This document shows positions 7,174 to 55,165 of a stretch of 64,000 bases of DNA, piece after piece. Made by a program: the position numbers and the translations under genes. Location: contig JACKGU010000002.1 in the NCBI GenBank assembly GCA_020631855.1, positions 234,615 through 298,614 on the forward strand. The letters run 5' to 3'. Under the pieces are notes generated by a model. That model saw nothing but the letters and a program-made list of their open reading frames with translations, did no database searches and was not told the origin of the DNA. This DNA comes from Candidatus Nomurabacteria bacterium (GTDB taxonomy: Bacteria; Patescibacteriota; WWE3; UBA101185; UBA10185). Position 1 is the stretch's first letter. Each line of letters opens with the position of its first letter.

Positions 7174-7295
7174 AATCAACTGCCACCAGCTTGTGCAGGT
7201 GGTTTGCTGTAATTTCTTTGCACTGCAAAGCCCAACATGTTGGGTAATCTGCATCTACTAGCCTGCGCAAGTAGATTTAGGTAACGAAATTATAA
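7174..7295 (+). repeat. Copy R2: 3' module, followed directly by a 13-nt stub of the 5' module
   Basis: atcaactgccaccagcttgtgcaggtggtttgctgtaatttctttgcactgcaaagcccaacatgttgggtaatctgcatctactagcctgcgcaagtagatttaggtaacgaaattataaa. The next bases (7296-7308), ATGAAGGttcagg, match the 5'-module start ATGAAGGctccgtgg. It lies between the convergent 3' ends of lepB and rpmA. Confidence 0.65.
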
Positions 7296-7344
7296 AATGA
7301 AGGTTCAGGAAAATTGCAAACTTTTTACGATGAGCTTGAATCTA

Positions 7345-13101: not shown

Positions 13102-13749
13102 TCATTTTACTTTTTCATTAAACTTTTTGGGCAACCAAATAGTATCTTCAATCTGCTGAACGTGGTTTGCATACCTTGCTAAAACAAACAATAAATCAGA
13201 CAATCTATTAAAATAAATTAGCATGTCTCTGGAAACATCATCTATAACAAAGTCTTTCTGAGAAACAAAAGATACAAAACTCCGCTCAAGTCTCCTGCAC
13301 ACTGCTCTGGAAATATGTAAATTTTTGGCTTGTATACTGCCGCCAGGTAAAATAAAGTTTTTTAATTCCGGTAAATCTGAGGACAGCTCGTCAATCAAAC
13401 GTTCCGACTTCAAAACCATCGCGCGAACATCTGGCCCTAATGAAGAGGTTCTTGTCCATTTGACTGATTTGGCTAAAGCTGTACCTGCTCTTTTTTTTGA
13501 TTCTGAAACATCACCATCGCCTGAAGATTCATAAGAAGCTATCACAGCACCGAGGCTAAAAAGATCTTCCTGCAGTCCTAGGATTGTTCTTGATATTTTT
13601 GATTTATTATCAACAACAGCTAAAGCCAAAGCAGCATTAAGCTCGTCCATAGTGCCTAATACTTCAAAAACATATTCTTTTTTCGAAAGAATTCCGCCGT
13701 TTATGATTGAGGATTTGCCGGAGTCGCCTTTTTTTGTGTAAATTTTCAT
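13102..13749 (-). CDS. PduO-type ATP:cob(I)alamin adenosyltransferase
   Basis: The N-terminus MKIYTKKGDSGKSSI matches the PduO/MMAB signature (IYTRTGDKGETSL). Its size (215 aa) fits, and the neighbouring gene encodes a B12-dependent RNR. Confidence 0.7.
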   Translation of the reverse strand: MKIYTKKGDSGKSSIINGGILSKKEYVFEVLGTMDELNAALALAVVDNKSKISRTILGLQEDLFSLGAVIASYESSGDGDVSESKKRAGTALAKSVKWTRTSSLGPDVRAMVLKSERLIDELSSDLPELKNFILPGGSIQAKNLHISRAVCRRLERSFVSFVSQKDFVIDDVSRDMLIYFNRLSDLLFVLARYANHVQQIEDTIWLPKKFNEKVK

Positions 13750-13798
13750 AATTTATTCTGCTATAAAAATAGGGGTGCTACAAGGCCTATTTATTGAA

Positions 13799-13828
13799 GG
13801 AGGCAGGGAGATTTTCTCCCTGCCTCCT
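13799..13828. terminator. Perfect 13-bp palindromic hairpin between nrdJ and pduO; likely the nrdJ terminator
   Basis: GGAGGCAGGGAGA-tttt-TCTCCCTGCCTCC lies 40 nt downstream of the nrdJ stop codon. The flanks are A/T-rich on both sides. Confidence 0.45.
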
Positions 13829-13868
13829 TCTTAATAACAAACAATCAAGCCCGGACATAAGCGCCTAA

Positions 13869-16373
13869 TTAACAGACACTATAGCCACAATCATGACACT
13901 TTAAACAACCCTCTTCTCTTATAAGCGAAGAGTTGCCGCAATCCGGACACATATCTAAGTGGGCATTAACACTTATATTATTTGAGTTTTCTTCAATTAT
14001 ATTCGAACCATTCGCCTTTACTTTTATCTTTAAATCGTCTGCCAATACTTTAGCTATAGCATCAGGAATGGAACTTACCCTGCTCTTACCAAAACCTACA
14101 GAACGCGCGCCGCCGATGCCTATTAGTTGCGATACTATTTCTTTTGCTGTCGTCAAAGGATTATAACTTGTTCTCAACCAGCCCGATAAAGACCTTCCAA
14201 GAGCCTCAGAGAGAGCCGATACGTCGCTACCCGCTTTACCTACTCCTACAAAAACCTCGAAAGGATCGCCGTTCGCATCTCTGTTTACAGTAATAAAAGC
14301 CTTTCCCTGGGGAGTTTGAACTTTGTAAGTATTTCCGTTCAACACATACCCTCTATCCATTATCGGCTCGGGATTAACGTTTTTAACTTCCTCGGGACCG
14401 GTATAAGAGCCGGCCTCTTTAGAGTCTTTTACTGCCTTAGTTTCCAAAACTACTTCTGTCCTACTTCCGGTGACATAAACCGTTAATCCTTTACACTTCA
14501 TCTCCCAACCTAGCATATAAGCTTTAGAGACATCTTCCAGGGTCGCGCCCTCAGGGAAATTACATGTTTTAGATATTGAGTTATCTATGAAAGCCTGTAT
14601 TGCGGCCTGAGTCATTATATGCTCTTCGGCAGTAATATCAGAGGAAACAACAAAAACATCACGAATCTCTCTAGGAAGATCTTCTATGTCAGTACAGGAA
14701 CCGGTGTTTGCAACTGAAGAAATAATATTCTGACGCGTTTCCGGAGAAAGATCTAACATATCAAGGGCCTTCTCAAACATTGGACTAACATAGGTGAGGG
14801 TTAGCTTTTCAGAATCTCCTGCAGCCTGATAAACGTTTCTTAAATAAGCCAGAGCAAAAACAGGCTCACAGCCGTAACCCTCAATTCCTGCAACAGTTGA
14901 GATTGTACCGGTTGGGGCAACAGTTGTTTGAGCAGCATTTCTAATACCGTGAGTCCTGATACCCTCCACCACGTATGCCCAATCCAGCGCCGGCCTACCA
15001 AAATCTTTTGAGTAGGGGGTCAGCGGTTTGGGGGGCTGCCATGTTAGATTTTCAGGGTCGTAAATACTACCTTTAATCTTTAAGAAAGGGCCTCTTTCCT
15101 TTGCCAACGCTATTGAAATCTTCATAGAGTGATATCTAATAAATTCAGTTATCTGCGCTGCCAGCTCTTGCCCCTCGAGACTTCCGTACCTTACTCCCAT
15201 TGCATACATCACGTCCGCCAAACCCATAAAACCTAGCCCAATTCTCCTGGCATTTAAGGCCGCCTCTCTGAGCTGAGGAATAGACGGCACATAAGTATTT
15301 TCAGATACTACGTTATCTAAAAATCTTGTTGCTAACTCTACACTTTCCTCTAAGAACTCCCAATTAAGCGTGCCATCTTCGTTAAGATGCGCCTCAAGGT
15401 TGAGCGACCCCAAACAACAGTTCTCATAAGGTCCAAGCCACTGCTCGCCGCAAGGATTTGTTGCCTCCAGATCATAAAGATGGGGCACGGGGTTGGTTCT
15501 ATTTGCCTCGTCGATAAATAACACTCCGGGCTCACCATTTTTGTGTGCGTGTTTAACTATTAAATCAAATATTTCACGAGCCATTGGTGTCTCGGTAACC
15601 TCTTTAGTATTAGGATCTATTAATTCGTAAGCTGTATCGTTTCTAACCGCCTCCATGAATCTGTCGGTAATAGCCACGGAGATGTTGAAATTCGCCATTT
15701 TACCTTCCTGGGCTTTACACATAATAAATTCCCTTATATCCGGATGATCAACCTTTAATACACCCATGTTAGCACCCCGACGAGCTCCTCCCTGAGCTAC
15801 CTCACCGAACGCACCATCATACACGGACATGAACCCAACCGGGCCGCTAGCCTTGCCGTTACTAGATTTTACAATACTGCCCTTTGGTCTAAGCTTTGAA
15901 AATGAAAAGCCGTTTCCACCTCCAGACTGCTGAATTAGTGCCGCAGTTCTTAGCGTAGAAAAAATGCTATCTTCACCAATCCCAAGATCGTCAGAGACCG
16001 GCAAAACGAAACAAGCGGCCAACTGGCCAAGCGGGGTTCCGGCACCGGTAAAAGTAGGGGAATTTGGAAAGAAACGCTTTGTCGCCAAAAGGTTATAGTA
16101 TTCAACCGTAGATTTCTGTACATCTCGGTAAGGAGCATCGGGCTTTGCAACTGTGGAAGCAACGCGTTCAAATAGTTGCTGTATATTTTCGGCATAAGTT
16201 CCGTCGGGATTTTTTCTTAAATACCTTCTCTCCAGTATATTTTGGGAGTTTGGGCTGAGTTCTATGTCTTCCTTTTTTTGCAGACCGTAATCTTTAATAA
16301 AAGTTGTATTAACTTTCAATGAACTGAGTATACTAGGTTTAAAAGCGTTAGAGGCAACATTAATCCACTTCAT
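13869..16373 (-). CDS. nrdJ: Class II (adenosylcobalamin-dependent) ribonucleotide reductase
   Basis: 834 aa. The active-site region is [21 protein letters not shown], and the C-terminal Cys cluster (CPDCGNSS...[12 protein letters not shown]) is typical of NrdJ. Confidence 0.85.
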
Positions 16374-16663: not shown

Positions 16664-16781
16664 GCAACCACCAGCTGACGCAGGTGATTTGCTGTAATTT
16701 CTTTGCTCTGCAAAGCCCAACATATTGGGTAAACTACATCTACAAGCCTACACGAGTCGTTTTAAGTAACGAAATTATAAA
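16664..16781 (+). repeat. Copy R3: 3' module, with remnants of the 5' module upstream (~16630-16663)
   Basis: agcaaccaccagctgacgcaggtgatttgctgtaatttctttgctctgcaaagcccaacatattgggtaaactacatctacaagcctacacgagtcgttttaagtaacgaaattataaa. It sits between the ftsZ 3' end and the nrdJ 5' end. Confidence 0.65.
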
Positions 16782-31799: not shown

Positions 31800-31828
31800 A
31801 TTATACGAAACAATTGAGTGTATTTCAA
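31800..31828 (-). promoter_or_regulatory. uvrA promoter TTGAAA-N17-TATAAT, 8 nt from the ATG, overlapped by an 18-bp palindrome
   Basis: The minus strand reads TTGAAAtacactcaattgtttcgTATAATctttgggtATG. The palindrome GAGTGtatttcaaCACTC (31816-31833) overlaps the -35. Confidence 0.45.
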
Positions 31829-31851
31829 CACTCTGTATTTTGAGTTTTACA

Positions 31852-32071
31852 ATGAAGAGACTACGGACATAAGTCCGTAGCCTCGCCCCTACTGCTCCAC
31901 GCATAAACTTTCACCGCGAACTAAAGCAAGGGGCCTTCCCGCTGCAGAAATCAACCACCGCCAGCTTACGCTGGCGGTTTAATGTAATTTCTTTGCACTG
32001 CAAAACCCAAAATGTTGGGCAAACTAAATCTACTAGCCCACGTAAATAGGTTTGAGTAACGAAATTATAAA
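31852..32071 (+). repeat. Copy R4: full-length bipartite element (5' module plus 3' module)
   Basis: ATGAAGagactacggacataagtccgtag...gaactaaagcaaggggccttcccgctgcagaaatcaaccaccgccagcttacgctggcggttt|aatgtaatttctttgcactgcaaaacccaaaatgttgggcaaactaaatctactagcccacgtaaataggtttgagtaacgaaattataaa. It lies between the uvrA 5' end and the 3' end of a LysM gene. Confidence 0.7.
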
Positions 32072-43481: not shown

Positions 43482-43708
43482 ATGAAGGCTCCGTGGACTA
43501 AAGTCCCCAGTCTCTTCTTTCTCCGCGGTTGAAAGCCCACGCCTTCATCCCCGAGCTAAAGCACGAGGTCTTCCCGCTGTGGAAATCAACCTCCGCCAGC
43601 TTACGCAGGTGTTTTGCTGTAATTTCTTTGCTCTGCAAAGACCAACATACTGGGCAAACTACATTTATTAGCTTACGCGAGTAGAGTTTTAAGTAACGAA
43701 ATTATAAA
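43482..43708 (+). repeat. Copy R5: full-length bipartite element
   Basis: ATGAAGgctccgtggactaaagtcc...cgagctaaagcacgaggtcttcccgctgtggaaatcaacctccgccagcttacgcaggtgtttt|gctgtaatttctttgctctgcaaagaccaacatactgggcaaactacatttattagcttacgcgagtagagttttaagtaacgaaattataaa. Its 3' end abuts the pgm stop codon with a 3-nt gap, and the 5' end lies 70 nt upstream of the ppsA ATG. Confidence 0.7.
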
Positions 43709-50351: not shown

Positions 50352-51254
50352 CTAAGCTACTCTTTCAAAAACTCTTAATTTGGCGCTTCTTGCGCGTCTG
50401 TTGTTTCTCACTTCCCCGTCGGAAGGGACTAAAGGCTTTTTAGTTAAACTATCAAGCCGTATTTCACTAGCAGGCCGCATGTATTGTCGACCAAAATCTT
50501 TGACGACCTTATCTTCGAGCGAATGAAAACTAATTACAGCCATTCGCCCCCTAGGCAGTTTTAATAAACATGCGGCCTGAGGCAGTGAATTTTCAAGATT
50601 TGCCAATTCATCATTGACAACTATTCGCAGGGCTTGAAATACTCTAGTGGCAGGATGAATTCTGCCCTTTTCATAGCCCGAAGGAGCTTCACTAACCAAA
50701 AGATCAACAAGATCTCTAATTACATTAAACTTCTTCGATCCACGAAACCTAACTATGGCAACAGCGAACTTTTTCGCCATGCGCTCACCCCCAAAGACGT
50801 AAAACATCTGCGCCAACTGCTGTTCCGAAAGAGTATTCAGAAGATCAGCCGCTGTTACACCCAAATTTTTATCTAGCCTCATGTCCAGCGGAGCATCTAG
50901 TTCATTTGTAAAACTAATTCCCGACTCTCCCGACTCAACCTGAGAAGAACTAAAACCGAGATCATAAATTATCCCATCAACATCTGTAAAACCATTCTCA
51001 AGAGCAATAGCGAGTATATCTTTAAAATTTCCCTTTACCCCAATAAAATTCTTATCCAGCCTCTCCTCCTTAAGGCGCTCTTCGGCTCTACTTAGAGAGA
51101 ATTCATTACAATCAATACCAAGGACAAAACATCCTTTTTCAAGCAATTTAGAGGCATGCCCAGCATCTCCAAGAGTACAATCAATGTACTTTCCGCCTTT
51201 TATGGGCGCCATATAAGTTAAAATTTCACTCTCAAATACAGGTGTGTGATACAT
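50352..51254 (-). CDS. rsmH: 16S rRNA (cytosine1402-N4)-methyltransferase RsmH (MraW)
   Basis: HTPVFESEIL...YIDCTLGDAGHA...DLGFSSSQVE...RMAVISFHSLEDKVVK are canonical MraW motifs. Confidence 0.85.
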   Translation of the reverse strand: MYHTPVFESEILTYMAPIKGGKYIDCTLGDAGHASKLLEKGCFVLGIDCNEFSLSRAEERLKEERLDKNFIGVKGNFKDILAIALENGFTDVDGIIYDLGFSSSQVESGESGISFTNELDAPLDMRLDKNLGVTAADLLNTLSEQQLAQMFYVFGGERMAKKFAVAIVRFRGSKKFNVIRDLVDLLVSEAPSGYEKGRIHPATRVFQALRIVVNDELANLENSLPQAACLLKLPRGRMAVISFHSLEDKVVKDFGRQYMRPASEIRLDSLTKKPLVPSDGEVRNNRRARSAKLRVFERVA

Positions 51255-51260
51255 TTCAAC

Positions 51261-51671
51261 CTAACTCGGCAAGTTCTTCGATAAATTTTCAAGGTACGCT
51301 TCCCAGATGGAAGTGTTCCATATTTCAATGTGATCTCCTGCTCCAATTACTGTTGTTTCTTTGTCAAGCTGAGCATAGACCTTTAGATTAGAAGGTAAAA
51401 CAATCCGACCTTGCGAATCAATTGCAGCTTCAGCGGCACCGGCATACATATATCTTTTAAGGTCTCTGGTTCTAGCCTCGGTTATTGAACCCGAAAGCTG
51501 TTTTTGAGATTCTTCGAGCCAGTCATTTTTATCGTAAATAAAAACGCACTGCTCAAAACCTCTAGAGAGAACAACCTCATCTCCTAAAATCTGGTCACGT
51601 AGTTTTTTAGGCAGGGCGAGCCTTGAACCCTCAGTAATATTCGGTTGATACTCCCCTAAAAACATTTTCAT
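51261..51671 (-). CDS. mraZ: Transcriptional regulator MraZ
   Basis: MFLGEYQPNITEGSRLALPKKLRD...GRIVLPSNLKVYAQL shows the two MraZ DXXXR-like repeats. It is the first gene of the dcw operon. Confidence 0.8.
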   Translation of the reverse strand: MKMFLGEYQPNITEGSRLALPKKLRDQILGDEVVLSRGFEQCVFIYDKNDWLEESQKQLSGSITEARTRDLKRYMYAGAAEAAIDSQGRIVLPSNLKVYAQLDKETTVIGAGDHIEIWNTSIWEAYLENLSKNLPS

Positions 51672-51849
51672 AAATATTAGACTTTAATGAGCAGACAAAA
51701 TGCTTGTGAAATCTATAGATATTCACCAGCATTCACCATGTACATCCAATATGCACCAATTTTATCCCAAGGTCAATACAAAGATTACCCGAAGATTGAA
51801 AGGAGATGACTTGAAAGTGAAATTTTAAAACTCTGTTCTCGGAACTTTT

Positions 51850-52052
51850 TCCTGCTGATGCTTTTAGAATGTTGGCGCATCTACACTTTTACTCCTTTCA
51901 GCCTTCGCCGATAAGCTAAAAGCTGAAGAACGTCAACCGCACCGGCTTATGCATGTGTTTTTCTGTAATTTCTTTGCGCTGCGAAGCACAACATGTTGGG
52001 TAAACTACATCTACTAGCTTACGCAAGCAGTTTCAAGTAACGGAACTATAAG
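51850..52052 (+). repeat. Copy R6: diverged full-length element (the 5' module is recognisable from ...cgataagctaaaagctgaag...)
   Basis: ...ccgataagctaaaagctgaagaacgtcaaccgcaccggcttatgcatgtgtttttctgtaatttctttgcgctgcgaagcacaacatgttgggtaaactacatctactagcttacgcaagcagtttcaagtaacggaactataag. It lies upstream of mraZ, at the left edge of the GC-rich island. The 5' boundary is uncertain. Confidence 0.55.
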
Positions 52053-52112
52053 TAATGAAAAAGGAGGGGATTCAGGAAAACCTGTAATGCAAGGCCTTCC
52101 CTCCGCCCCCCC

Positions 52113-52508
52113 TTAGAAAAAATAGTTCAGCAGGTAGTAAATACCACCTGCTGCCAAGACCCCCATTACCACAACGACAAACAGGCAACAACCGTTGCCA
52201 TCGTCGCCGGGTGACGGCGGTATTATATCTTCCATGCTCCAGCCAGATCGCCGGAGCGCAACTATGACAAGCAATGCAGCTATGCCTAGCGCAAACGCTA
52301 GGACAAAGGCATTGCCTGCCCAGACGAGGAGACCCTCGTCCTTTTCCTCGACCACAGCGGGCGCTGTGGTCGGAGTAATTTGCTCAGCCACCGTAGTGGT
52401 GGGCTGGGCAACTTTGGTTTTCGGCGGCTGCGCCACCAAAAACACACCCACGGCACAAATGGCCATGGGTATAAGTAGGGTCGCTACCGACCCTATAAGT
52501 TTTTTCAT
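52113..52508 (-). CDS. Small secreted/membrane protein of unknown function, encoded in GC-rich DNA
   Basis: Strong SD (GGAGGG-aaaa-ATG), signal peptide MKKLIGSVATLLIPMAICAVGVFLV, a Pro/Thr-rich linker and two C-terminal TM helices. Local GC is about 55-60% against about 38% around it, and the codon usage looks atypical for the window. Confidence 0.4.
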   Translation of the reverse strand: MKKLIGSVATLLIPMAICAVGVFLVAQPPKTKVAQPTTTVAEQITPTTAPAVVEEKDEGLLVWAGNAFVLAFALGIAALLVIVALRRSGWSMEDIIPPSPGDDGNGCCLFVVVVMGVLAAGGIYYLLNYFF

Positions 52509-52559
52509 TTTTCCCTCCAGGGAAATTCGCTCCGAGGAGACATTTCGGCCGAAGCCTTA

Positions 52560-53060
52560 ATGTCGGAGCCAGGCTTTAATGTAGCCTGCCTATTTTGCCG
52601 AGGAAAAGATTGGCAGGGATAGGTCCCTTTTGGGAATTTGGTGGCTGGCGCCACGCTCCTTACACCCTATAGGGGGTCGGGACATCCAAAGATGCGGGTT
52701 ACACCGCACCGGTCCCTGGGTGTAAGGTCTTTCCCTGGTCGTTAACGTAGACCATCGGCAGATGCAAGCATCTTTGCTGCACGTCAGGGTAACCCATAGC
52801 TGTTTTCTCACAGCTATCCCTCTCGATGGGGTTTTCTGCTCTTGGGCTTTCCTACGCTTCATTGCGCCGGAAACTTCCCTCACCTACCTTTACGCCGCAG
52901 GGGCGTTCAGATAACTGCCCTGGGGGCGGTGCTCCTTAACGCACCAGAGATCTATCGCGTCTCCTTGGCGCCACTGTTGCTAAAATCTTTGATTAGTGGG
53001 ATCAAAGAAGTTGAGTTATCGAACAAATAATGTTTTGGTCGGCAATTCAACTTTTTTGAT
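52560..53060. other. GC-rich, hairpin-dense ~0.5 kb non-coding region: candidate structured RNA or leader of the 52113-52508 gene
   Basis: No convincing ORF; about 55-60% GC. Local stem-loops include GACAUU-aa-GGC-uucg-GCC-g-AAAUGUC and an RBS-sequestering UCCCUGGAGGGA just upstream of the small gene. Two copies of a GGUGC(G)UUAAGGAGC(A)CC-like motif occur (52640-52670, 52925-52955). A terminator-like hairpin plus U-tract lies on the plus strand at ~53010-53065. Identity unresolved. Confidence 0.3.
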
Positions 53061-53176
53061 GCTGAGAATTAAGAAAAACAGGCAGCAAAAAAAGGTTTCT
53101 TATAATGTTATAGGTTAATTATACGCCTAATGAAGCGTTTTGTAAATATTATAGGTCCTTTACGGGGGGGGGGAGG

Positions 53177-54523
53177 TTACCCGAGCTCGTCGATTCTTAA
53201 GCGTCTTTGTGAAGCTGTATCGCGATCTCTGATAGTCACAGTTTCATCCTCTAAGGTCTGAAAATCGACTGTAATGCAATAGGGAGTCCCTATTTCGTCT
53301 TGGCTATAGTACCTTTTTCCAATATTTCCTCGATCATCCCAAGCCACATTATAGCCTTTGGTAACTAGAGTGTTGTATATTAGCCGAGCTTTATCCACAA
53401 GCTCGGGTTTATTCTTTAAAAGCGGGAAAACAGCATACCTATAGGGTGCTATATCTGGGTGCAGTTTCAGAACTACTCGTTCTTCTTCCTCAACATAAGC
53501 ATCAAACAACAACACCAACATAAGTCTATTAAGCCCTATGGAGTACTCAACGACATGGGGAACATATTTCTCCCCTGTTACAGGGTCGGTGTAATCTAGA
53601 TTAGTTCCCGAAAATTCCGCATGGCGACTTAAGTCCCAGTCGCTTCTGTAGTGAAGGCCTTGAAATTCTTTCCAACCAAAAGGAAATCTATACTCAACGT
53701 CTGTAGCTATCTTATTGTAATGAGCCCGCTCCTTAAAGTCTTGGTCGCGCAGCCTGAGCTTATCTTCAGGAATTCCCAAACTTACTAACCAGTCTATAGC
53801 CCAAGATTTCAATTTCGCCATTTGATTTTCGGCATCTGAAGGATGCACATACAGTTCCATTTCCATTTGTTCAAATTCCCGCGTTCTAAAAAAGAAAGGG
53901 CCGACCTTTATCTCATTTCTAAACGCCTTGCCTATTTGAGCTATTCCAAAAGGTATTTTCATTCTCATGGAATCTCGAACTAAAGCGTAGTTATAAAAAA
54001 TGGGCTGACATGTTTCTCCTCTTAAATAAGCGGTTGCTTTAGCGTCTTCTAGTGTACCTATTGAGACCTCAACTAAACTATTGAATTTTCTTGCTTTTGA
54101 AAGCTTATTTCCATCGGGGCTTAAAATGTTATTTTCAGCAATTAAAATATCCAGCTCCTCAAGACTCATGCCGTCAGCATTAAACTCCTCTCCGTTTTTT
54201 TTCTCAAAGTATTCCCCAATAATGTGGTCGGCTCGATATCTTTTATTGTTTTTTATATCTTCAACCATTGCATCGGCAAAGGATTCAACGTGCCCGCTAG
54301 CCTCCCATACCCTCGGGTGAGATATAATTGCACTATCTAGCCCCACTATGTTTGGTTGTTTATGCACAAACTCTTTCCACCATAAATTTCTGATGTTTCT
54401 TAGCATTTCAGCTCCTAGAGGACCAAAGTCGTAAGCGGCTTCCCACCCACCATAGATTTCTGAGGATTGAAAAACAAAACCTCTTCGTTTGCATAAACTT
54501 GTTATTTTTTGAACCGCGTCCAT
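53177..54523 (-). CDS. glyQS: Glycine--tRNA ligase, homodimeric (archaeal/eukaryote-like) type
   Basis: The N-terminus RRGFVFQSSEIYGGWEAAYDFGPLG, the class II motifs (FRNE...) and the anticodon-binding C-domain identify a dimeric GlyRS. 448 aa. Confidence 0.85.
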   Translation of the reverse strand: MDAVQKITSLCKRRGFVFQSSEIYGGWEAAYDFGPLGAEMLRNIRNLWWKEFVHKQPNIVGLDSAIISHPRVWEASGHVESFADAMVEDIKNNKRYRADHIIGEYFEKKNGEEFNADGMSLEELDILIAENNILSPDGNKLSKARKFNSLVEVSIGTLEDAKATAYLRGETCQPIFYNYALVRDSMRMKIPFGIAQIGKAFRNEIKVGPFFFRTREFEQMEMELYVHPSDAENQMAKLKSWAIDWLVSLGIPEDKLRLRDQDFKERAHYNKIATDVEYRFPFGWKEFQGLHYRSDWDLSRHAEFSGTNLDYTDPVTGEKYVPHVVEYSIGLNRLMLVLLFDAYVEEEERVVLKLHPDIAPYRYAVFPLLKNKPELVDKARLIYNTLVTKGYNVAWDDRGNIGKRYYSQDEIGTPYCITVDFQTLEDETVTIRDRDTASQRRLRIDELG

Positions 54524-54841: not shown

Positions 54842-55165
54842 ATGTACGAGGCGCTAAATCAACCTATAGAAGTATTGATTTCCTTTACCAAAAATGGCCC
54901 CATACCGACAAGTTTCATATGGAAAAAGAAGGAATACTACATCCAAGAATTAAATTTTATATATAAAGAAAAAAGAGGAAATGAAACAATTCACTACTTT
55001 ATGGTCTCTGATGACTCTGCGGCGTATAAGCTATGTTTTGAAACCGAGAGCCTGAGATGGTTACTTATGGAGGTATATGATACGCTGCAACCGGAGAACG
55101 GCGTTTCTGCAGTAAAAGAAAGAATAACTATAACTTATGCGAGACAGAATAATATTACATGTTGA
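54842..55165 (+). CDS. Small hypothetical protein overlapping the start of the Y-family polymerase gene (possible polymerase accessory factor)
   Basis: 107 aa with no recognised motif. Its 3' end overlaps dinB by 29 nt, which suggests translational coupling. The layout resembles the yolD-uvrX / yqjX-yqjW pairs in Firmicutes, but that is inference only. Confidence 0.35.
   Translation: MYEALNQPIEVLISFTKNGPIPTSFIWKKKEYYIQELNFIYKEKRGNETIHYFMVSDDSAAYKLCFETESLRWLLMEVYDTLQPENGVSAVKERITITYARQNNITC

Follow-up and report, generated by a model that had tools for sequence, protein, structure and literature searches.

A GC-rich island between glyQS and mraZ in a WWE3 bacterium reads as an orphan membrane-protein gene with a predicted hairpin-saturated transcript

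Dense, stable secondary structure is not normally expected in coding sequences. Heavily folded mRNAs are known from type I toxins (hok, tisB, aapA1), small hydrophobic membrane proteins, typically under 60 aa, which are encoded at accessory loci by compact mRNAs with a sequestered Shine-Dalgarno (SD) sequence and a specific 5'-3' fold-back switch. OLE RNA, a structured RNA of ~500-600 nt conserved across many Firmicutes, is located directly upstream of, and is co-transcribed with, oapA, a gene for a small multi-pass membrane protein, and the GC-rich intergenic noncoding RNAs (ncRNAs) of AT-rich genomes combine a GC spike with hairpins. Stable inverted repeats within coding sequence have been described as organelle coding palindromes, long perfect repeats that reach 284 bp and occur in conserved genes of the respiratory chain, and the paper on these palindromes terms the retention of both frame and structure an "evolutionary compromise." At the level of DNA, template-switch (quasipalindrome) mutagenesis creates and maintains hairpins (PMC8794818); the process is described as sporadic and is not known to fill entire genes with them. 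Here, we compare with these systems a GC-rich island in the window, by which we mean the whole 64,000-nt stretch of DNA that was analyzed. The explanation that we prefer, and to which we give about an even chance, is that the gene is an orphan encoding a membrane protein and that selection has saturated its entire mRNA with hairpins.

The mean GC content of the window is 0.396 (standard deviation of 0.042 for 300-nt windows), and the composition scan revealed a single sustained stretch above 0.50 GC, at 52100-52990 (0.547 GC). The genome belongs to the candidate division WWE3 (Patescibacteria), and the stretch is flanked in it by glyQS on one side and by the mraZ-rsmH-ftsL-ftsI cluster on the other. 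The original prediction, made from the sequence by eye, had described an island of 1.1 kb with 55 to 60% GC; the spike is real, but the whole interval averages 0.514 and its rightmost 185 nt (52991-53176) are AT-rich (0.355 GC), so that the island measures ~890 nt. The ORF (0.538 GC) and the GC-rich leader (0.544 GC) share in the spike. The proposal of horizontal acquisition held for the composition, which is foreign (GC of 0.55 versus 0.40; GC3 of 0.57 versus 0.37 in the neighbors, the four of which span 0.34 to 0.38), but not for a source: no similar DNA was found in plasmid and phage collections, no protein relatives were found, and none of the ORFs of at least 50 aa between glyQS and mraZ has a protein-family match, so that neither a donor nor an integrase or other mobility gene is apparent. 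The glyQS-mraZ slot is variable, with other accessory genes occupying it in related genomes.

The same island was found in identical context in at least 19 independent contigs (NCBI, ENA, and Logan), and both junctions recur in independent assemblies from all three sources, which rules out an assembly chimera or contaminant, the former having been raised originally as a possibility. The 10 contigs that were fetched and aligned are 99.8 to 100% identical, and the island is invariant among them save for 3 sites, all in the AT-rich part. The island is a genuine species-specific gene cassette. Only two G/C homopolymers of at least 7 nt occur in the window, C7 (52106-52112) and G10 (53164-53173), and they lie at the two edges of the interval given originally. 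The latter, which varies in length among independent contigs (C9, C10, or C11 on the minus strand), pairs with 52100-52115 as a 16-nt inverted repeat (88%), whose left arm doubles as the 5' arm in the terminator hairpin. A transposon reading of this flanking repeat was rejected, since no target duplication was seen in the flanks and the G7 run belongs to the terminator stem. The island also differs from MITE, REP, and Rickettsia palindromic elements in that its hairpins all differ in sequence and form no repeat family inside it, and no further copies of it were found in the window or in the fetched loci.

Table 1. Coordinates of the predicted features of the cassette within the window
Feature	Position	Strand	Details
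Sigma-70-type promoter TTTACA-17 nt-TATAAT	53118..53146	-	11/12 consensus positions
C10 tract (plus strand G10)	53164..53173	-	4 nt past the glyQS stop, 18 nt upstream of the -35 box
AT-rich 5' leader part	52986..53110	-	Three hairpins, 53093-53054, 53052-53009, and 53008-52986 (local fold)
GC-rich structured noncoding leader	52509..52985	-	~13 stem-loop domains (predicted fold)
Small hairpin UUUCCCUGGAGGGAAA	52510..52525	-	3' arm includes SD GGAGG (52518-52514); dG of -5.7 kcal/mol (local fold)
131-codon ORF, predicted 3-transmembrane-helix protein	52113..52508	-	GGAGG 5 nt upstream of ATG
Intrinsic terminator	52056..52114	-	19-pair hairpin starting with the G7 run, then UUUUU; dG of -29.6 kcal/mol (local fold)

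The arrangement of these features (Table 1) reads as one minus-strand unit with a promoter, a leader of ~600 nt, an SD sequence, the 131-codon ORF, and an intrinsic terminator directly 3' of the stop codon. The minus-strand ORF with its SD sequence is as had been described originally. Transcription is predicted to start near position 53110, and sites as good as this promoter number only five in the 64 kb, with both strands counted; at least two of the other good sites also adjoin gene starts (31828, upstream of uvrA, and 54806, upstream of an ORF at 54842). From the promoter to the start of the ORF, the minus strand showed no terminator-like site. Since a strong promoter lies upstream and no terminator intervenes, the best reading of the noncoding stretch is that of the 5' leader of the membrane-protein gene, one of the options put forward in the original prediction.

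The GC-rich part of the leader (~490 nt) is noncoding, as had been claimed: every frame is interrupted by stops, and a chi-square test detected no 3-base periodicity (P = 0.82). The abundance of stems noted in it by eye is borne out by a minimum free energy (MFE) of -193.5 kcal/mol and by z scores against shuffles of -5.5 on the minus strand and -4.3 on the plus strand. Its predicted fold contains multibranched domains besides simple hairpins, including a 70-nt domain (52727-52658) closed by a perfect 10-bp helix, as well as two elements that had been picked out originally, namely, a GGC-UUCG-GCC hairpin (52569-52529) and the SD-sequestering stem, which at its modeled energy is weak. The AT-rich part holds an inverted repeat with 27-nt arms. 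Two dispersed copies of a GGUGCGUUAAGGAGCACC-like motif had also been reported, but these have only ~8 nt in common, and a joint pattern matched the second only (52655-52665), at chance level (32 of 100 shuffles). The possibility that the leader is a degenerate remnant from the 5' end of a once longer membrane ORF was discarded, as it contains no hydrophobic frame and neither half has a period-3 signal. The 10-nt long-range complementarities between leader and ORF occur at about chance level, by a rough estimate.

The Rfam scan took in RNase P, tmRNA, signal recognition particle (SRP) RNA, the cobalamin riboswitch, OLE, GOLLD, ROOL, HEARO, and raiA, among others. At the gathering threshold, Rfam 15 detected only two tRNAs in the whole window, both of them elsewhere, and at an E value of <=10 with lax filters, the best hits in 51900-53300 scored 12 to 21 bits, compared with gathering scores of 35 to 224, and belonged to irrelevant families. 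No known family thus matches the island, and the resemblance to RNase P suggested originally is ruled out, as no match was obtained at either setting. The best reading of the GC-rich leader is that of an mRNA 5' untranslated region (UTR) outside every described RNA family. It can be argued instead that this leader is itself the functional RNA, either a riboswitch-like sensor of a ligand or protein or a partner RNA of the OLE/OapA kind: it is noncoding and structured, its multibranched domains go beyond simple hairpins, at ~600 nt it is longer than bacterial 5' UTRs usually are, and it lies directly upstream of a gene for a small multipass membrane protein, as OLE does. We consider this improbable, given the Rfam result, the lack of homologs in ~1.5 Mb of related loci (nhmmer, 167 loci) and in plasmid and phage collections (blastn), and a leader of only ~30 nt in the cassette of a sister lineage described below; moreover, the structure excess of the leader is below that of the ORF and may simply be its share in a cassette-wide richness in hairpins.

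The ORF carries a clear coding signature despite its hairpins, as judged from codon-position composition (period-3 chi-square of 32.5, P = 1e-5; G at 42% of first and T at 39% of second codon positions). AlphaFold2 predicts helices at residues 3 to 25, 58 to 87, and 104 to 130 of the protein, and the charges, read by eye, fit the positive-inside rule (N-terminal MKK and RR after helix 2). No family was found for it in Pfam, NCBIfam, PADLOC, or PHROG, and protein-pattern scans of viral and JGI metagenome contigs gave no match. A word-indexed search found no homolog, a negative result that is weakened by the absence of the exact sequence from the protein collection, and phmmer against 1.84 billion representatives, a collection from which the query is likewise missing, so that this result too is weakened, returned only P0121, a 544-aa tandem-repeat protein whose E value is inflated by six copies of one ~50-aa match with 38% identity and which we took as a chance hit. 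By its sequence, the cassette is thus an orphan, since none of the searches produced a homolog of the protein or of the leader.

Within the island, structure is most pronounced in the ORF, a point overlooked in the original prediction. The predicted fold of the ORF is a series of ten back-to-back near-perfect hairpins (52495-52128), while the A-rich stretch around the AUG is predicted to be unstructured. The MFE of -212.3 kcal/mol corresponds to a z score of -14.5 against dinucleotide shuffles and of -10.8 against synonymous-codon shuffles (controls mraZ and an ftsL-like gene, z near 0). When MFE was scanned across all 64 kb with a correction for GC, the ORF and island supplied the top outliers. 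Since the hairpins hinge on the choice of synonymous codons, they do not simply follow from the protein sequence and must owe their presence to selection or to a process that actively generates them; the combination of both z scores with the period-3 signal would class the ORF as a coding palindrome. The stems follow no consistent codon register. The share of GC in stems versus loops is the same as in shuffles and is uninformative on whether the GC content is there because of structure. The original argument took a local GC spike with hairpins as the classic footprint of a structured RNA gene. As this combination is strongest inside the ORF, stronger than in the noncoding part, that argument fails, and the composition characterizes the cassette as a whole and not a single RNA gene.

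Two loci of a sister WWE3 lineage (L091 and L097) also carry a GC-rich membrane ORF, of 270/273 codons, in this slot between glyQS and mraZ. It is located directly upstream of mraZ, is equipped with an SD sequence and a terminator of its own, and has a GC3 of 0.55 versus 0.19 to 0.28 in the neighbors and folding z scores of -7.8 and -11.5. Homology to the 131-codon cassette was not established, for although BLASTP gave an E value of 0.004 over 29 aa, hhalign gave 0.19 and nhmmer found nothing, and this second cassette backs our preferred explanation by analogy only. No additional hairpin island was found upstream of mraZ in 80 WWE3-like JGI loci. The two sister ORFs differ at 150 of 813 nt (18%) and by an in-frame indel, with no stop or frameshift and a dN/dS of 0.42. 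Their folding energies are nearly the same (-372 and -371), whereas the same substitutions placed at random give -310 +/- 10, and 11 compensatory pairs were counted, versus 1 to 3 in slid controls. As 47 pairs of L091 are broken in L097 with total folding energy unchanged, the hairpins have been partly swapped for new ones and not conserved pair by pair.

These data bear on the reading that the whole ~1 kb is a large noncoding structured RNA, in which the 131-codon ORF would be fortuitous in GC-rich self-complementary sequence. By length alone the ORF is not significant, since 10.7% of shuffled islands contain one as long or longer; its antisense frame is open for 121 codons (long spurious ORFs on both strands, noted originally, are present in the ORF list); it is an orphan; the hairpins are densest within it; and if transcription read through from glyQS, a single long-range helix between the C10 and G7 runs would enclose the whole island. 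Against this, the period-3 signature is strong in the ORF and lacking in the leader, the SD sequence and ATG are well spaced, the start region is A-rich and unstructured, three hydrophobic helices are predicted, the terminator follows immediately after the stop codon, and the sister-lineage ORF is significantly long (such a length arises in 0.05% of shuffles) and has stayed open through its substitutions and indel. We regard a wholly noncoding island as quite improbable.

Rather unlikely, but of greater weight, is an origin of the hairpins at the level of DNA, whereby the slot is a template-switching hot spot in which inverted repeats are created or perfected and short blocks are rewritten, with no need for a function at the RNA level; hairpins and fast block-wise divergence would then be one process, either neutral or exploited for diversification of the membrane protein. 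Several observations agree with it: (i) both strands fold far beyond shuffles (the plus strand has a z score of -9.7 in the ORF, besides that of the leader), which makes a DNA-level origin of the inverted repeats possible; (ii) the divergence between L091 and L097 is a mosaic, in which blocks at 100% identity adjoin others at 65%; (iii) pairs are lost between them at equal folding energy; (iv) their ORF diverges beyond either flank (9% upstream and ~1% downstream); and (v) template switching is documented to have such effects on hairpins. On the other hand, the sense strand folds better than the antisense strand by 37 to 73 kcal/mol (-212 versus -175 kcal/mol in the 131-codon ORF), and stem mismatches on the sense strand favor G-U over A-C by 29:10, summed over three ORFs of which two are related alleles, a bias that points to selection on the transcript. 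The near invariance of the island among the aligned contigs argues against hypervariability, and part of the mosaic could stem from recombination with a breakpoint close to the L091/L097 ORF.

In our preferred explanation, that of a gene selected for hairpin saturation of its mRNA, the cassette would be a self-contained, lineage-specific minus-strand gene unit, which its own strong promoter would transcribe into an RNA of ~1.05 kb. Nearly the whole transcript, coding part included, would be a chain of ~27 stable local hairpins, with only the A-rich stretch flanking the AUG left open. For the role of the hairpins, we infer that they keep the mRNA compact and double stranded, which would reduce both ribosome loading, the SD sequence lying in a hairpin, and nuclease attack; the outcome may be low-level, long-lived, or conditional expression of the membrane protein, as with the heavily folded mRNAs of type I toxins. 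A type I toxin-antitoxin-like module in the strict sense, in which mRNA folding and an antisense RNA keep a hydrophobic membrane toxin from being translated, would likewise fit a predicted hydrophobic membrane protein, a heavily folded mRNA with the SD sequence inside a hairpin, and an accessory, strain-specific locus. It is, however, very improbable, as proteins of 131 aa here and 270 aa in the sister lineage far exceed the typical size of type I toxins, the PADLOC defense and toxin-antitoxin models gave no match, and a consensus scan of 51600-53300, which weak or atypical sites could escape, found no sigma-70-like promoter on the plus strand for an antitoxin RNA.

We found no description of such loci in bacteria in the literature. 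An ORF that folds 14 standard deviations beyond shuffles, with the excess written in synonymous sites, departs strongly from what coding sequences usually show, and frame and fold have both survived the divergence of the unrelated ORF that occupies this slot in the sister lineage. If this is real biology, it would be a natural example of protein and RNA structure jointly constraining one sequence to an extreme degree, in a symbiont-type bacterium with a minimal genome, and could reveal a new mode of mRNA control or stabilization, or else hairpin-driven protein diversification. It is possible, although we put it forward as a doubtful proposal, that hairpin-saturated GC-rich membrane-protein genes are a distinct, undescribed kind of WWE3/Patescibacteria locus, in which the frame and the hairpin chain (as RNA or single-stranded DNA) are kept amid fast turnover of primary sequence, representing either targeted diversification driven by template switching, i.e., a new diversity-generating mechanism, or a dual-function structured RNA/mRNA. 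In practice, it would be unsafe to take every GC- and hairpin-rich island of an AT-rich genome for an ncRNA gene.

Compared with the described systems, the cassette shares with type I toxin mRNAs the small hydrophobic membrane protein, compact mRNA, sequestered SD sequence, and accessory location, but its protein is 2 to 5 times larger, no antisense RNA gene was detected, and its fold is a chain of independent local stems instead of a fold-back switch. With OLE/OapA it shares a structured RNA of similar length directly upstream of, and by prediction cotranscribed with, a small multipass membrane gene; it differs in that the Rfam OLE model does not match, the protein has no Pfam or NCBIfam family, and the leader is limited to one species. 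The GC spike with hairpins is like that of the GC-rich intergenic ncRNAs, except that here it spans a coding gene equally and the noncoding part has neither relatives nor an Rfam family. Template-switch mutagenesis would account for the near-perfect stems, the apparent compensatory changes, and the block-wise multinucleotide divergence between L091 and L097, but it does not predict the G-U bias of the sense strand. As in organelle coding palindromes, stable inverted repeats lie within coding sequence and both frame and structure are kept; in place of long perfect repeats in conserved genes, however, the cassette has many short (8- to 12-bp) adjacent hairpins, which fill an orphan bacterial gene and its leader in a GC-rich island of an AT-rich genome.

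The GC-rich segment between glyQS and mraZ is a real, species-specific island. At least 19 contigs of independent assemblies encode the exact 131-aa product of its minus-strand gene; among them are the 629-kb contig of GCA_020631795.1 at NCBI and contigs from several assemblies at ENA and several Logan runs. The 10 contigs fetched and aligned were 99.8 to 100% identical. Since these 10 share both the glyQS and the mraZ flank in identical arrangement, an assembly chimera, as had been considered possible, can be dismissed. Differences among the 10 aligned contigs were confined to the AT-rich promoter-proximal part and comprised a C9/C10/C11 tract, a T7/T8 run and one SNP. The tract is the C/G homopolymer at 53164-53173, directly 3' of the glyQS stop, whose length varies by assembly, and the T run lies at 53093. 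In JGI and ENA, several of the species' contigs stop within the tract or about 100 nt past it, and the island was not recovered in JGI contigs, though glyQS of the species is present there. These observations suggest either that the tract slips and strains differ, or that the island edge assembles poorly. The GlyRS relatives place the organism in candidate division WWE3 of the Patescibacteria.

The original prediction placed a GC-rich island at 52090-53176. A sustained GC spike was indeed found at 52100-52990, with 54.7% GC where the window as a whole has 39.6% (sd of 300-nt windows, 4.2%). It is the only such segment within the 64 kb, but the right-hand 185 nt (52991-53176) are AT-rich (35.5% GC). 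The window has just two G/C homopolymers of at least 7 nt, C7 at 52106-52112 and G10 at 53164-53173, and these bracket the flagged interval. The 131-codon ORF with its GGAGG was found, and so were the hairpins named earlier and an upstream stretch without ORFs; a supposedly repeated GGUGCGUUAAGGAGCACC-like motif occurs no more often than expected by chance.

The island has a complete set of expression signals, and 53093-52061 splits into 27 consecutive stem-loop domains by local folding. Only five sites in the whole window, both strands included, match the promoter consensus this well; besides the island's own, at least two (31828 and 54806) are likewise positioned shortly 5' of a gene, so the organism appears to use such promoters, which makes the one at the island credible. 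Transcription should start near 53110, judging from promoter position. The whole unit would be transcribed as one mRNA; a scan of the minus strand found no terminator-like site from the promoter to the ORF start. That the leader is instead an autonomous regulatory or OLE-like RNA is less likely, and known RNA families include neither leader nor island. Nor is the leader, for which no relatives were found, demonstrably a riboswitch. We regard the leader as a candidate novel structured 5' UTR, restricted to one species.

Features of the cassette and copies of the adjoining dispersed repeat
Feature	Position	Strand	Basis or remark
Promoter TTTACA-17-TATAAT	53146-53118	minus	11/12 consensus positions
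AT-rich 5' segment with three hairpins	first part of predicted transcript	minus	local fold
GC-rich multi-hairpin RNA, ~480 nt	second part of predicted transcript	minus	local fold
Small hairpin containing SD	between GC-rich leader and AUG	minus	local fold
A-rich AUG region, unstructured	at ORF start	minus	local fold
131-codon ORF	52113-52508	minus	GGAGG upstream
Terminator, 19-pair hairpin then UUUUU	52114-52056	minus	local fold
Dispersed-repeat copies	404-463, 7176-7301, 16669-16780, 31941-32070, 43586-43707		76-83% identical

A dispersed repeat of about 125 nt (51922-52059), probably the repeat noted earlier upstream of mraZ, adjoins the terminator. Read on the minus strand, it begins with TTTATAAT and contains two hairpins sharing a GCGUAAGC core (GUAA tetraloop) plus the palindrome CCCAACATGTTGGG. 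Two copies, at 51922 and 31941, are located 5' of the minus-strand genes mraZ and uvrA, respectively, and several Logan contigs break at 51998, within the repeat.

The proposed division into a gene and a non-coding region was borne out by base periodicity. The ORF shows a strong 3-base signal (chi-square 32.5, p = 1e-5) and the classical codon signature (G 42% at position 1, T 39% at position 2), whereas the GC-rich leader shows none, either as a whole (p = 0.82) or in halves (p = 0.89 and 0.97), and its three frames give stop-ridden, non-hydrophobic translations. The absence of periodicity in either half and of any hydrophobic frame also rules out that the leader belonged to a longer gene and decayed recently. 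The ORF's length would not by itself be proof of coding, as ORFs of at least 131 codons arise in 10.7% of shuffled islands. AlphaFold2 without an alignment predicts three helices (3-25, 58-87 and 104-130; pLDDT 63), and in our reading the charge distribution is compatible with a membrane topology. None of Pfam, NCBIfam, PADLOC and PHROGs has a family that matches the protein. To read the cassette as a type I toxin module is less likely to be correct.

The most extreme property of the island resides in its coding part. The leader folds at -193.5 kcal/mol (z = -5.5 against shuffles; plus strand, z = -4.3), and the 396-nt ORF, far more extreme, at -212.3 kcal/mol (z = -14.5), forming ten back-to-back near-perfect hairpins of 8 to 25 pairs each. 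With protein and codon usage held, synonymous-codon permutation still gave z = -10.8, and the control genes mraZ and an ftsL-like gene lay near 0 against synonymous-codon shuffles; the extreme folding excess of the ORF thus depends on synonymous sites. When every 200-nt window was scanned for MFE with GC correction, those of the ORF deviated most (-5 to -6.8 sd). The GC spike and RNA-like hairpins, originally taken as the footprint of a non-coding RNA gene, are therefore no mark of one: they characterise the entire cassette, most strongly where it is coding. That the whole ~1 kb is a non-coding RNA is a less likely reading.

Three further structured stretches were seen in the window. On the minus strand, 31801-31940 ranks second in structure among the GC-corrected 200-nt windows (-5.3 sd); it is a GC-richer hairpin cluster between a dispersed-repeat copy and the 11/12 promoter at 31828, shortly 5' of a uvrA-like gene. 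At 13701-13900 (minus), the short gap separating the ORFs 13102-13749 and 13869-16373, both on the minus strand, exceeds the folding expected from its GC content by 4.2 sd. Neither has an Rfam match in the whole-window scan. Within rsmH, many WWE3-like loci (L116-L144 and others) share a GC-rich segment, about +1000 nt from the mraZ start, that folds better than expected (-3.5 to -5.6 sd); its counterpart here, at about 50400-50800, does so more weakly (-2.6 to -3.5 sd). The segment may represent a structured element conserved within coding sequence, or simply a GC-rich protein motif under conservation.

Searches for sequence similar to the island gave nothing in plasmids, phages, viral contigs, JGI metagenomes or ~1.5 Mb of related loci, and protein searches gave no credible relative of the 131-aa protein, a negative weakened by the fact that the collection lacks the query itself. 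The only phmmer match, P0121 (544 aa; a 76-aa unit repeated exactly in tandem six to seven times), may stem from a small element, circular or tandemly repeated, whose assembly yielded a concatemer, and its likeness is probably due to chance. Six WWE3 relatives (GlyRS 72-77% identical) share the order recO-dinB-glyQS-[slot]-mraZ-rsmH-ftsL-ftsI with varying slot content. Two carry relA/spoT, two an opposite-strand methyltransferase and one a 107-aa gene; the closest relative, L091, has two unrelated hypothetical genes and, directly upstream of mraZ, a 270-codon ORF that is GC-rich (52-56% against 34%). In WWE3, then, as these loci (L091-L096) show, accessory genes concentrate in the gap between glyQS and mraZ. 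Hairpin islands are rare in it: 80 further WWE3-like mraZ loci from JGI have none that is comparable.

By analogy, the L091 ORF can be regarded as a second case of the phenomenon seen in the island's ORF. It carries an SD and a terminator of its own, encodes a polytopic hydrophobic protein, has a GC3 of 0.55 (0.19-0.28 in adjacent genes) and is coding, since only 0.05% of shuffles reach its length. It folds at -372 kcal/mol in sense (z = -7.8) and -299 in antisense, with a synonymous-shuffle z of -8.8. Its only relative is a 273-aa allele, 77% identical and likewise adjoining mraZ, in a second assembly (L097). The two strains are 99-100% identical in the mraZ, rsmH and ftsL proteins, 95-100% in downstream DNA and about 91% in the upstream gene, and 65-86% in the 5' two-thirds of the hairpin ORF. 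Over the ORF, 150 substitutions in 813 nt form a mosaic of identical and heavily altered blocks, to which a nearby recombination breakpoint may contribute; the frame is kept open, the indel is in-frame and dN/dS is 0.42. Folding is equal (L097, -371 kcal/mol; z = -11.5), as against -310 ± 10 with the substitutions at random positions and -351 ± 7 with permuted targets at the same sites. Among the L091 hairpin pairs, 11 are altered on both sides yet still paired in L097 (1-3 in slid controls, 6.0 ± 1.7 in shuffles), 38 are altered on one side and still paired, and 45 are broken, indicating that some hairpins were kept by compensation and others replaced by new ones. The L091/L097 cassette has no detectable homology with that of the window, on which this evidence bears solely by analogy.

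Two observations, the energy advantage of the sense strand of the window's ORF (-212 against -175 kcal/mol for antisense) and the 8:4 ratio of G-U to A-C among transition-type mismatches in its Watson-Crick-seeded stems on that strand, suggest that the hairpins act at the RNA level, where they may restrict translation and degradation of the mRNA. The main rival is that template switching at the DNA level produced the inverted repeats; the process has been documented both to generate hairpins and to preserve them (PMC8794818), and it would also account for the block-wise divergence of L091 and L097.

The island is more unusual than originally supposed, on different grounds: the hairpin-saturated ORF and its sister-lineage analogue are a more surprising result than the leader, and the testable one. 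We found no bacterial counterpart described in the literature; for the ORF, the closest described phenomenon is that of the 'coding palindromes' of Nematomorpha mitochondria (PMC6649704).
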